A stretch of DNA of 64,000 nt from Eledone cirrhosa. Taxonomy: Eukaryota. Position numbers and translations under genes: made by a program. The stretch covers positions 315,394,001-315,458,000 of the forward strand of contig OZ024743.1 of the NCBI GenBank assembly GCA_964016885.1. Direction: 5' to 3'. Positions 23,881-52,118 of the stretch are shown one piece after another. The notes under the pieces were generated by a model, which saw only the letters and a list, made by a program, of their open reading frames with translations, ran no database searches and was not told the origin of the DNA. Numbering within the stretch: the stretch's first letter is position 1; the number at the start of each line of letters is the position of its first letter.

Positions 23881-25220
23881 ATGTAAGTATGTATGTATAG
23901 GTACATACATATATGTATACAGACGTACAGTAGCATGCATATATATATATATATATATATATATATATATATATATATATATATATATATATACATATAT
24001 ACATACAGGTACACATATATATATATGTACGTATCAGTTTAGCGGACGTTTATTATAACGCCCGCTTTGTCCGTTTGTAAACAAACTGACAGCCTGATTT
24101 ATGCCGTACGGTGTTAAGGCAACCACGTCACCTTTTTGTTCAACACTGACACAGGAACGATGTACTAGTTTCAAGCTTCTTAGCTATCATCAGCACCGTA
24201 TACACTTCTGCCAGATGGTTGAACGTTCGAAAGTATATACTTTCCTTATGAAAATTAACGGCTGAGCAGCCTAATTTGCATATCGAGTGAGTTCAGTCGG
24301 CCAGGCTCACCGAAAACGATAAGTTGGAATAGGATGAAACGAAATTTCATTTCTCACTCTTAGTACGGCACTTACTTAAATGTAAGTATGTATGTATACG
24401 TACATACATATATGTATACAGACGTACGGTAGCATGCATATATATATATATATATATATATATATATATATATACGTATATACATATATATATATACGTA
24501 TATACATACAGGTACACATATATATATGTACGTATCAGTTTAGCGGACATTTATTATAACGCCCGCTTTGTCCGTTTGTAAACAAACGGACAGCCTGATT
24601 TATCCCGTACGGTGTTAAGTAAGTGCCGTACTAAGAGTGAGAAATGAAATTTCGTTTCATCCTATTCCAACTTATATATATATGTATATATATATATATA
24701 TATATATGTGTATATATATGTCTATATATATAAATATATATATATATGTCTATATATATATATATATATATATGTCTATATATGTCTATATATATAAATA
24801 TATATATATATATATATATATGTATATATATGTCTATATATATAAATATATATATATATATATATATATGTATATATATGTCTATATATATATATATATA
24901 TATATATGTATATATATGTCTATATATATATATATATATATATATATATATATATATGTATATATATGTCTATATATATGTCTATATATATATATATATA
25001 AATATATATATATATATATATATATATATATTTATATATATATACATATATATACATATATATATATATATATATATATATATATTTATATATATAGACA
25101 TATATAGACATATATATATATATATATATATATATATATACATATACATATATATATATAAGTTGGAATAGGATGAAACGAAATTTCATTTCTCACTCTT
25201 AGTACGGCACTTACTTAACA
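23881..25220 (-). mobile_element. Retrozyme-like tandem/inverted element E1 (~500-bp unit)
   Basis: 23881-24379 is repeated partially at 24380-24619; inverted end ~24615-24672; further end copy 25160-25220; HHR and octamer present. Confidence 0.75.
24157..24199 (-). ncRNA. Minimal type I hammerhead ribozyme
   Basis: Reverse complement: acggtg-CTGATGA-tagct aaga agctt-GAAAC-ta-GTA-catcgt; palindromic stem III ACTAGT; GUA triplet. Confidence 0.88.
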
Positions 25221-25549
25221 TATATATATATATATATATATATATATATATATATATAAACAAATAACGAAACGAAATCAAACTTCGTTTCGTTTGTAAC
25301 TCACTTTTGTATGACTGACGCTTAAACAATTAAGTTAAAGATGTACATCCATATATGTATACTGAAATACTAGTATGTATATGAATACACACACGTATAC
25401 ATATGTAGATGTACCAAGTTTTTTCACTGGTCACTTTACTGCGAGTGGCCAGTTATTCTGTATGTAAACACACAGATAAACCGGTTTTTAGAGTCATACT
25501 GGTTTTTGAGGAAACACCTTTCCTCTATTCTCCAGAAAGCCAGACAAGG

Positions 25550-25594
25550 AATATTGAACTAGTTTCGTTGTTGTTACAACTCATCAGCAATATT
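25550..25594 (-). ncRNA. Minimal type I hammerhead ribozyme (E2 unit 1)
   Basis: Reverse complement: aatattg-CTGATGA-gttg taacaa caac-GAAAC-ta-GTT-caatatt. Confidence 0.88.
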
Positions 25595-26016
25595 TACCTA
25601 TCTTCCGGCCTCTCTAGAGAATCGTAAAAGCACATATCGCTATATGCTTTTTCTATGAAAATTAGTAGTGAGCAGACCAATTTGCATAGAGTGTGAGTAA
25701 GTACCGGTTCAACGGAGACGATAAAAACAAATAACGAAACGAAATCAAACTTCGTTTCGTTTGTAACTCACTTTTGTATGACTGACGCTTAAACAATTAA
25801 GTTAAAGATGTACATCCATATATGTATACTGAAATACTAGTATGTATATGAATACACACACGTATACATATGTAGATGTACCAAGTTTTTTCACTGGTCA
25901 CTTTACTGCGAGTGGCCAGCTATTCTGTATGTAAACACACAGATAAACCGGTTTTTAGAGTCATACTGGTTTTTGAGGAAACACCTTTCCTCTATTCTCC
26001 AGAAAGCCAGACAAGG

Positions 26017-26061
26017 AATATTGAACTAGTTTCGTTGTTGTTACAACTCATCAGCAATATT
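26017..26061 (-). ncRNA. Minimal type I hammerhead ribozyme (E2 unit 2)
   Basis: Identical to 25550-25594. Confidence 0.88.
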
Positions 26062-26507
26062 TACCTATCTTCCGGCCTCTCTAGAGAATCGTAAAAGCAC
26101 ATATCGCTATATGCTTTTTCTATGAAAATTAGTAGTGGGCAGACCAATTTGCATAGAGTGTGAGTAAGTACCGGTTCAACGGAGACGATAAAAACAAATA
26201 ACGAAACGAAATCAAGCTTCGTTTCGTTTGTAACTCACTTTTGTATGAGTGACGCTTAGACAATTAAGTTAAAGATGTACATCCATATATGTATACTGAA
26301 ATACTAGTATGTATATGAATACACACACGTATACATATGTAGATGTACCAATTTTGATTTCGTTTCGTTATTTGTTTTTATCGTCTCCGTTGAACCGGTA
26401 CTTACTCACACTCTATGCAAATTGGTCTGCCCACTACTAATTTTCATAGAAAAAGCATTTAGCGATATGTGCTTTTACGATTCTCTAGAGAGGCCGGAAG
26501 ATAGGTA

Positions 26508-48961: not shown

Positions 48962-49076
48962 GGAGTTGCCAGTTTAGACTAGTAAGACCATGTTCAGCTA
49001 AGTATTCAATATTTTGGAAAGTGGAGTGTATGTATTGCAAACACTTAGTGTCGACGGCTGAGCTCACTGGCGCACT
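48962..49076 (-). mobile_element. Family D pLTR end (second copy ~57790-57904, plus strand)
   Basis: Shared gtgagctcagccgtcga...cactc...tattga..acttagct...tcttactagtctaaactgg. Confidence 0.75.
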
Positions 49077-49393
49077 ATATATATGTTATCGGATATATAT
49101 ATATATATATACTGTTTGGTTCCTCAATACAAAGCTTGACCACTTCAGTGTATATGATTCTCAGTTATGGCATGAGAGCTTATGTGGCTTTATAAGCCAG
49201 ACATATTTTTAAAAGCAGTCTACATAAATTGCATATTAGTATTAGTGCAGCATGGACTGCCTGATAAACCTTGAAATGCCTCTTTAGGCCTCCTTAATTA
49301 TGTATATAATGTATAAATATTAGGAGTTACTGCCACGTACCGTCCAAACGGCAAGAGCTCAGCCGTCCGACAGAAGCTCATAATATATATATA

Positions 49394-50666
49394 CAGAGAG
49401 CGAACGGTATTTGAGGACACTTGCATTTTTAGTCATTTTATTTTACTAAATTTTATTGAACTTCTATTTCAGAAAATAACAATGAATATAACTATGCTTA
49501 CTAATGAAATGAAAAGGCATGCTGTGATTGTGGCTTTGAAGGCTAAGCATGGTGATTTAGAAATTTCTCGTTTTCTGAAAGTTGCGAGATCTTTTGTCCA
49601 CAAGAATCGGTGTGAGTTAGAGAAAGAGGATGGAAACGTATTACCTGTATCAAAACGTAAAAAAAAACATTTCCAACGATATGATTCTATCAGGACACTT
49701 GAATTTATTCACGAAGTTAAGCAAAACATTGATGACAATCCAGGAATATCAATGAGGTCAATTGCAAAAGGTTTTGGTGTGTCAGAAAAAACAATTAGAA
49801 ATGTTATGCACGAAGACATCAGATACAAATCTTACGTGGTGAGGAGATGCCAATTCATGCCCGAAAAAAAACGAAAGAAAAGCGTTTAATCAGATCCAAA
49901 ATACTTTTAAACAAATTTAAATATCCATCAACAGATGGTGTGATTTGGTTTTTCTCAGATCAGAAAAACTTTGACCAGGACCAAAAAACAACACAAGAAA
50001 TGACAGGTGGCTATGTGCAGATCCTTCTGATGTTCCAAGTGTAATGCACACATAATTTCCTGCAAGTGTCATGGTTTTGGGTGTTGTTAGCAATGAAATA
50101 CATGTGATGCCTCCTCACTTTTTTCCACAAGGCCTTGGGGTGAATGCTGCTGTGTATATTAATGTTCTGGATAAAGTTGTTAAGCCTTGTATCAACAGTA
50201 TATGTAATGGAAGGCCTTATGTCTTTCAACAAGATTCTGCACCATCACACAAGGCTCAAATGTCACAAGAATGGATGGCTGACAATTTACATTATCACAT
50301 CACCCCCAAACATTTCGCTTCCTAATTCTCAAGATCTCAATCCATTGTACTACTATGTGTAGAGCATCCTTGAGGAAAATGTCAATGAATACCCTCATAG
50401 CACCAAAGATTATTTGAAAGTCGCCATAGTTCGAGTCATGTCCGATATGAACAAGGACCATTTAATCCGAGCTTGTAAACGATTTCGACCCCGCGTAGAG
50501 GCAGTTATTGATGCTTATGGTGGTTTTATTGAATGAAATTATTAAATTGATAATTTAGCTTTATGTTTATGTTATATTTATAAGAATACAGGTTTTTTTT
50601 TCTGTTATTATATAAACGTTTTTTTTTTAAACCATAAATCTGTCCTTAAATAACGTCCGCAACCTA
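49394..50666 (+). mobile_element. Near full-length Tc1/mariner DD37D (maT-type) transposon, inactivated
   Basis: Imperfect ~27-bp TIRs in TA context; transposase pieces 49482-50536: HTH region, WFFSDQKNF, VFQQDSAPSH, PNSQDLNPL(Y); 37 residues between the second D and the third catalytic position. Confidence 0.88.
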
Positions 50667-51022
50667 TATATATTATGACCTTCTGTCCGACGACGGCCGT
50701 TTCGACGCCAAGTGGCATATATATATACACACAGTGAGTGAGAGGTTACGTTCACCTACATATCTCATATTTATATACAAAAATTATATAGTGTGCAACA
50801 ATTAAAATGTGAAATAGTTTATAATTCTTCTGAACTGAATTAAGGCTCGTGAATATATATATATATATATATATATATATATATATATATATATATATAT
50901 ATATATATATATATATATATATATATATATATATTATATATATATATATATATATATATATATGTGTGTGTGTGTGTGTGTGTGTGTGTGTGTGTGTGTG
51001 TGTGTGTGTGTGTGTGTGTGTG

Positions 51023-52118
51023 ATGTAATCTGAGTTTTTTCGAATATTAATAATAACATTCGATTCGTTTGCAATTATGTAAACAAGCCTCAATTTTATA
51101 GCCATGTCAGTAGAATGAACCCTTCATTCTTGCTCTTGTGTTGGCATGTGGACAGAACTGTAGATACTAATGTATCTGGGTATCACCCTTCATCAGTACA
51201 GCTCACTGTTCACCTGCCAAACTGTCAGAGCTAGTGAAAATATATGCTATTTTCAAAAATACACAGTGACTGATCCGCTTGATTTTAATATTAGCAGACT
51301 GGCCGATCAGTCAGATCTGCATATTAGCAGATCCACTGATCAGCCAGATTTGCATATCAGTAGACTGGCCAGTCAGTTTCCTGTATACGAGTGATAAATG
51401 GCCGGCTTTTCCAAATTCAAATAAAAAAAGAAAGTTTTCGCTCTACATGGCTGAATACAATAAATGTAATCTGAGTTTTTCGAATATTAATAATAACATT
51501 CGATTCCTTTGCAATTACGCAAACAAGCCTCAATTTTATAGCCATGTTAGTAGAATGAATCCTTCATTCTTGATCTTGTGTTGGCATGTGGACAGAACTG
51601 CTAATATGCATATCTGACCGATCAGCCAGTCTGCTAATATGCAAATCAGGCCGATCAGTCACTGTGTATTTTTGAAAATAGCATATATTTTCACTAGCTC
51701 TGACAGTTTGGCTGGTGAACAGTGAGCTGTACTGATGAAGGGTGGTACCCACAAACATTAGTGTCTGCAGTTCTGTTCACATGCCAACATAAGATCAAGA
51801 ATGAAGGGTTCATTCTACTGACATGGCTATATTTTTGCATAATTGCAAACGAATCGAATGTTGGTGGATTGGCAGTATCGGTAGAGGGTCGGACGCCATG
51901 CTTTCCAGCATAGTTACGTCCCTTTACGATCTGAGTTCAAATCCCGCCGAGGTTGACTTTGCCTTTCATCCTTACGGGGTCGATAAAATAAAGTACCAGT
52001 AATGCACTGGGTAATTGTTGGCCTTGTGCCTAAAGTAGAAACAATTATTAATATTCGAAAAACTCAGATTACATTTATTGTATTCAGCCATGGAGAGCGA
52101 ACATTTTCTTTTTTTATA
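51023..52118 (-). mobile_element. Retrozyme-like element F: 441-bp unit, partial repeat and inverted arm (SINE inserted at 51863-52046)
   Basis: atgtaatctgag at 51023 and 51464; inversion ~51600; HHR copies at ~51155-51206 (minus) and 51724-51773 (plus). Confidence 0.8.
51724..51773 (+). ncRNA. HHR motif with one core mutation
   Basis: gagctgta-CTGATGA-agggtggtaccca-cAAAC-attagt-GTC-tgcagttc; the other copy has GAtAC, so the consensus restores GAAAC. Confidence 0.7.

Follow-up and report, generated by a model that had tools for sequence, protein, structure and literature searches.

To our knowledge, only two hammerhead-bearing repeats have a known promoter of their own: newt satellite 2, with one of the small nuclear RNA (snRNA) type, and a schistosome repeat, with one for RNA polymerase III (Pol III). 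The elements of the newt promoter reportedly include an octamer. The newt promoter was described as an snRNA-type promoter for RNA polymerase II (Pol II) by Coats, Zhang and Epstein (1994), as cited in PMC2220036. Metazoan retrozymes without long terminal repeats (non-LTR retrozymes) are short AT-rich tandem repeats with type I hammerheads that are highly expressed in the tissues tested; circularization, copying and mobilization by a Penelope-like enzyme have been proposed (Cervera and de la Pena 2020, PMC7229834). The main text of that paper names no endogenous promoter (the word "promoter" occurs twice, both times for T7) and does not contain the word "octopus"; the supplement may list the taxon. 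Penelope pseudo-LTR elements also carry hammerheads, insert in tandem and inverted arrangements, target microsatellites, and have an internal promoter downstream of the start (PMC8557442).

Here we analyze hammerhead repeats in a 64,000-nt stretch of DNA from Eledone cirrhosa (assembly GCA_964016885.1, contig OZ024743.1, positions 315,394,001 to 315,458,000), referred to below as the window. The assembly measures 3.0 Gb and is rich in microsatellites. Three hammerhead repeats lie between window positions 23881 and 52118: E1 on the minus strand, E2 as a minus-strand array with an inverted partial copy, and F as an inverted pair. Upstream of the ribozyme their units contain a module that consists of the octamer ATGCAAAT, a box resembling the proximal sequence element (PSE) of snRNA genes, and a TATA-like box. 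The best explanation, to which we assign a probability of about 0.72, is that these are retrozyme-like repeats, probably of one related superfamily, whose module matches the snRNA promoters of the host and likely drives Pol II from a start predicted to lie 16-28 nt ahead of the ribozyme core. What is directly established is the module with its spacing and with its match to the host U1, U2, U3 and U5 promoters, together with the hammerhead fold. Our literature search, with subscription papers and one supplement out of reach, returned no description of such a module in hammerhead repeats and no paper pairing a retrozyme with a proximal sequence element.

A likeness to newt satellite 2, suggested in an earlier sequence-only reading of this DNA, holds: both are tandem type I hammerhead repeats with an internal snRNA-type Pol II promoter, predicted in the present case (PMC2220036). 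The likeness is one of organization between distant animal groups, and the Eledone repeats differ by following their host's own bipartite layout with the octamer adjoining the proximal element, by occurring as many diverged families, and by inserting both in tandem and inverted. Judged by sequence, the repeats fit the description of non-LTR retrozymes apart from their longer units. They are short, dispersed, AT-rich tandem repeats with a GC content below 45% (0.36 for E2, 0.38 for F) and arrays on many chromosomes. The type I hammerhead core is intact in E1 and E2; that of F is intact in a copy elsewhere (L044) and altered in both window copies (CAAA and GATA). The inverted and tandem layout and the (TA)n flanks are compatible with Penelope-like mobilization. 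Unit lengths are about 480-500 nt for E1, as measured in arrays elsewhere in the genome, 467 nt for E2, about 430 nt for F, and about 328 and 311 nt for the further families G and K, so that E1 and E2 exceed the 170-400 nt quoted for non-LTR retrozymes (PMC7229834). Penelope-like pseudo-LTRs resemble the repeats in hammerheads, insertion layout and microsatellite targets, but the snRNA-like module, which the minimal hammerheads in this genome lack, differs from the internal, downstream Penelope promoter (PMC8557442).

Octamer and hammerhead in the repeats

The octamer had been reported to start 88, 100 and 93 nt before CTGATGA in E1, E2 and F, and these distances are exact. It occupies 24274..24281 in E1 (minus strand), 26147..26154 and 25680-25687 in the two units of the E2 array (minus strand), 26415-26422 in the inverted E2 copy (plus strand), and 51639-51646 in F (plus strand). 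In the window 5 of the 18 CTGATGA sequences have an octamer within 130 nt upstream, and the octamer alone is mildly enriched (11 occurrences against 6.1 expected, a number reached in 4 of 100 shuffles). Genome-wide, the pattern octamer-N72-100-CTGATGA-N10-24-GAAA was matched 22,907 times, compared to 6 times for the reversed pattern and 229 times with a flipped octamer; these counts represent copies, not independent events. The positional enrichment named earlier as a check is strong and oriented. The genome-wide count of the octamer followed by YATATA (53,938, control 11,637) was not used as evidence because it is confounded by (TA)n.

All three ribozymes fold as type I hammerheads, with helices I/II/III of 6/4/2 bp in E1 (24157..24199, minus strand, predicted cut after GUA at 24163), 7/5/2 bp in E2 (26017..26061 and 25550-25594, minus strand) and 8/4/4 bp in F (51724..51773, plus strand, with CAAA replacing GAAA). 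The two-pair helix III of E1 and E2 contains the palindrome ACTAGT. The Rfam model HH9 matched the three E2 copies with E=6e-6 and a score under the gathering threshold, and E1 and F were not among the matches listed in the scan of the whole window, where microsatellite matches dominated. Identity among the copies of E2, the youngest family seen, is mostly 98-100%, and many chromosomes have them in tandem and divergent arrays; tandem and inverted arrays recur across chromosomes.

The three families had been presented as different and thereby as independent evidence. As independent evidence they are not supported, because E1, F and other families are connected through loci of intermediate sequence, and an alignment exists between E1 and E2. 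A search without the commonest E1/E2 variant gave 4,714 matches (22 in the control), and the 20 loci examined from it yielded families G and H as well as intermediates: L201 and L202 stand between E1 and F, and L200 between F and G. In alignments of the sequence 3' of the ribozyme the z value was 7 for E1 with E2, 9-12 for E1 with L199, L201 and L202, and 5-7 for the octamer-free K families with L200. F is linked mainly by eye via a common hairpin region and H weakly (z 4-5 at best). High alignment scores of F with L202 and L203 were discounted since they come from a common insert resembling a short interspersed element (SINE). E1, E2 and F probably belong to one related superfamily and are not independent. 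With the intermediates and the common downstream sequence, a convergent origin was rejected and the module is best read as inherited and conserved instead of acquired on three separate occasions. A similar hairpin with a TTAT..TAA-type centre lies some 100-140 nt 3' of the ribozyme (about 24040-24065 and 51040-51065 in the window; also in L199-L203, L200 and L067) and is a candidate signal for the reverse transcriptase.

The module and the host snRNA promoters

The promoter layout of the host was derived from its snRNA genes (loci L111-L113, L219, L227-L235, L123-L153 and L183-L189). A YCART core is located at -55 to -58 in all 14 distinct U1, U2 and U5 flanks, accompanied by an invariant T at +8 and +10 and by a TATA-like box near -30; none of these 14 has an octamer near -72. 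Leaving out one class at a time, the proximal site was recovered in 14 of 14 cases. In the four U3 genes tabulated ATGTAAA(A/T) is located at -71 to -74, followed by a T-x-T-A register 16 nt on and a TATA box 40-42 nt later. At -76 to -78, each of the three types of U6 promoter and the highest-scoring U6atac gene carry ATGCAAAT, ATGCTAAT or ATGGAAAT, with a TATA box 46-48 nt later, and the proximal core of U6 and U6atac is of the CCT type. Neither the eight lower-scoring U6 matches nor the seven other U6atac matches have an octamer at this position; they are probably retrocopies. The host Pol II snRNA genes show AATTA near -90, TCAGT at -56 and a TATA-like sequence at -30, and U6 and U6atac a proximal octamer and longer spacing. 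Some U6 cluster copies (L117, L118, L120, L122) have a SINE-like insert between TATA box and gene, and six U6 or U6atac copies (L163, L166, L167, L169, L221, L223) are joined directly or via (TA)n to these repeat families, as if a single machinery had inserted both together.

Within the repeats, the octamer start is followed exactly 16 nt later by a YCASY core, and this core 24-28 nt later by a TATA-like box, which gives an octamer-to-TATA distance of 40-44 nt. The TATA-like box had been recognized in the sequence-only reading, but its distance, put there at 30-40 nt, is larger, since the boxes start 41-43 nt from the octamer start. On the minus strand of E1, the PSE-like box with a TCAGC core occupies 24254..24265 and TATATA, which resembles a TATA box or PSEB, 24234..24239. 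The E2 array has its PSE-like box at 26127-26138 and CATATA at 26108-26113. CATATA had been attributed to the copy at 26415, which in fact has CATTTA; it is the minus-strand copies that carry CATATA. The inverted partial copy of E2 (26347..26779, plus strand) contains the PSE-like box at 26431-26442, CATTTA at 26456-26461 and the hammerhead at 26508-26552. The F module spans 51639..51687 on the plus strand, with the TCAGT box at 51655-51666 and CATATA at 51682-51687.

The minus-strand copy of F (51024..51454), with its hammerhead core at 51196 and GATA replacing GAAA, contains three subrepeats (51262..51355), each with an octamer-like word and a TCAGT-like core 16 nt on. The words are ATGCAAAT at 51355, ATGCAGAT at 51322 and ATTAAAAT at 51289, the last at the proximal position of this copy. 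The octamer subrepeats described earlier are thus present, with a period of 33 nt rather than about 32, and only the word at 51355 is an exact octamer.

The repeats were compared to the host code with a two-block matrix trained on host U1, U2 and U5 only, by ranking the position at octamer+16 among 122 positions in 22 representatives having both octamer and core. This position ranked first in 13 of the 22, including E1, F (p 0.0005) and G, and second to seventh in five, among them E2 (fourth, p 0.06). Among 11 representatives, every one has the CA of the core and 10 have T+8, with spacers between groups being only about 30-40% alike. The repeats thus have an snRNA-type proximal element and a second box at Pol II spacing, weakly so for E2. 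In insects the snRNA promoters for Pol II are bipartite, and certain PSE bases are specific to the promoter class (PMC1761439), and the placement of a proximal element near -55 and a second box near -30 is common to the repeats, the host U3, U1, U2 and U5 promoters and the insect PSEA/PSEB promoters. The repeats share with host U3 an octamer-like word 16 nt ahead of the proximal core, and differ from the host genes by combining a U1/U2/U5 core with a consensus octamer and by having the promoter inside a mobile RNA unit. The octamer had been described as a part of snRNA distal elements; the snRNA-like character of the module is borne out by the host U1, U2, U3, U5, U6 and U6atac promoters, but in the repeats the octamer is no distal element and adjoins the proximal one.

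The octamer is optional and is not the shared core of the module. The hammerhead pattern without octamer requirement and with E1 and E2 excluded gave 26,496 matches (control 342), from which a set of 39 distinct contexts was taken (loci L061-L109, leaving out six loci that repeated included cores). An octamer occurred at -70 to -112 in 2 of the 39, whereas 10 had the proximal-plus-TATA module (score of at least 7 at -92 to -64, found in 5% of random windows). These ten all belong to the K, G-like and J families, and the octamer-less relatives K310, K2, L104 and L107 scored 7-22 at -71 to -83 with the snRNA-trained matrix. The module was not found in minimal Penelope-type hammerheads, where 0 of 16 loci reached a score of 5 at -92 to -64. 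The K families (L067, L087, L102) have GC(C/T)GGACCGGCAA at the octamer position of the other families, a possible alternative activator site.

A distal word, TTAYYTCCCTT, is present at -257 to -285 in nine host promoters. It recurs immediately downstream of the cut site in K310 (at -256 relative to the predicted start of the following unit), in G (about -268) and in L200 and K2, where it doubles as a helix I strand, and was not found in E1, E2 or F. Loci with the word in this place are L067, L200, L035 and L087, and in units of 311-328 nt it stands about 256-268 nt ahead of the predicted start that follows.

Several observations weigh against reading the module as an snRNA-type promoter. Four of the 22 representatives fail the ranking: in L096 and L041 the core probably arose by chance, and L182 and L095 have decayed or are constructed differently. 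E2, the youngest of the families, has the poorest proximal box (CCACT). The representatives, which are related to each other, were picked by hand and by eye within the first 75 Mb of a single chromosome, so that the ranks measure pattern agreement and do not amount to 22 independent trials. A motif search in -62 to -50 served to choose the snRNA anchor, the matrix is built from only 14 AT-rich sequences, and its TATA block also gives a score to (TA)n DNA. Exact ATGCAAAT and a TCAGT core occur together in no host gene examined, U3 having GTCAT in that register. Finally, the box region folds better than host promoters do (median z -1.2 versus +0.2, p 0.013), from which it follows that RNA structure also shapes this region; it is probably both a DNA element and an RNA hairpin.

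Polymerase choice and competing explanations

Applying the core-to-start distance of the host genes (55-58 nt) to the repeats gave predicted starts 16, 28 and about 20 nt before CUGAUGA in E1, E2 and F, corresponding to positions 24209, 26082 and about 51711-51713. A YA dinucleotide at core+55 to +57 was present in 13 of 19 rows, although in DNA this rich in A and T the evidence is weak. For E2, the contigs of four runs indicate presence only and are uninformative on start or strand. Pol II is favored because the octamer-TATA spacing is that of U3 rather than U6, the core is of the U1/U2/U5 type, and T runs of 5-7 lie inside the units (T7 in E1, T5 in E2, T7 and T5 in F). The module thus appears likely to drive Pol II. 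A 3' box comparison was discarded: the pattern, defined post hoc, matched 11 of the 14 host genes and none of the 4 repeat units, an uninformative result as the chance expectation per unit is low.

It would be possible to view the module as a U6-type (type 3) Pol III promoter, given that exact ATGCAAAT stands beside a TATA box at host U6 and that the K310 unit has no T run of at least 5. A TATA box placed 3' of the PSE directs transcription to Pol III in vertebrates; in plants the PSE-to-TATA distance sets the choice of polymerase (PMC9652321). We consider this improbable. The repeats have neither the 46-48 nt spacing nor the CCT-type core of U6, host U1, U2 and U5 genes carry a TATA-like box as well, and in the E1, E2 and F units such T runs are ahead of the promoter and would end a Pol III transcript before the promoter is copied. 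About equally improbable is a reading in which the conserved words serve the monomer as RNA signals, such as a hairpin or sites for reverse transcriptase or packaging, with transcription coming from flanking promoters. In E1, E2, F, G and K310 the TATA-like box does fall in a predicted hairpin, the stems of which differ, and an extended helix I reaches to about 7-11 nt upstream of the predicted start. However, host snRNA genes have these words at the same spacing in their untranscribed 5' flanks, both sequence and register are preserved at the octamer and TCAGT positions, and L199, L202, L206 and L107 retain the boxes and show no hairpin.

Octamer-plus-TATA promoters occur in histone H2B and immunoglobulin genes, and the module might likewise be an mRNA-type promoter that does not use SNAPc, or the relic of an ancestral promoter. 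The common ancestry of the families and the weak proximal box of E2 would fit such an origin, which we rate slightly lower still, since motif columns are conserved while spacers drop to about 30-40% identity, and relatives without the octamer still keep the proximal box. A host-type snRNA promoter for Pol II accordingly remains the preferred explanation. The module is real and probably functional, with promoter activity inferred from its sequence.

Setting in the window and proposed cycle

The E1 repeat (23881..24616, minus strand) comprises about 1.5 units with one hammerhead and has (TA)n on its flanks; short inverted fragments are at 24613-24672 and 25160-25218. The E2 tandem array (25254..26355, minus strand) consists of 2.4 units of 467 nt with two hammerheads and is the only one among the three families in the window from which a full monomer would be possible (26023 to 25557). 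The plus-strand copy of F (51595..52118), the inverted partner of the minus-strand copy, contains a SINE-like insert at about 51862-52046.

Between E2 and F there is a broken Penelope-like reverse transcriptase (30354-31975, plus strand) with YVDD and a cysteine-rich linker (RVT_1 E=0.002, below the cut-off), followed by a hammerhead-like core at 32509 without promoter module. A 40-nt tandem repeat (32643-32918, 6.9 copies) lies directly 3' of this element. Another repeat at 33440-33990 has hammerhead-like cores at 33519, 33525 and 33842 in a near-perfect palindrome, no octamer, and PSE scores of 0-7. A fragment of an IS630/Tc1-like transposase with weak helix-turn-helix matches is present at 49317-49889 (plus strand).

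In the proposed cycle, a POU factor would bind the octamer beside SNAPc; Oct-1 contacts SNAPc (PMC9652321). Pol II would start just ahead of the first ribozyme, which would remove a leader of about 50-60 nt. The transcript would read through the promoter of the next unit, and cleavage by the second hammerhead would release a monomer. Being cut before and after that promoter, the monomer would include a promoter of a kind that snRNA genes keep outside their transcript. Circularization and copying by a Penelope-like enzyme, probably into (TA)n, would then produce tandem and inverted copies, an insertion mode that would restore the order of promoter and ribozyme. The earlier claim that each unit has its own internal promoter is supported to the extent that a promoter-like module is placed inside the cleavage-to-cleavage monomer by the tandem layout; its activity as a promoter is predicted.

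More tentatively, and with considerable doubt, animal retrozymes in general may be parasites of the SNAPc pathway that have internalized an external snRNA promoter in a ribozyme-released monomer and keep it matched to the code of each host. In the families of 310-330 nt the distal element of one unit would then lie about 260 nt ahead of the start in the next, and a complete promoter would exist only in tandem.

As a by-product, the analysis provides an outline of the snRNA promoter code of this animal, including the different Pol II and Pol III spacing and the proximal octamer of U6, which is useful for guide-RNA expression tools. The module also yields start predictions at nucleotide level. 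If the explanation is correct, a host-matched snRNA-type promoter in tens of thousands of invertebrate repeat copies would explain constitutive expression, and it would demonstrate how a normally external promoter can become part of a mobile RNA.

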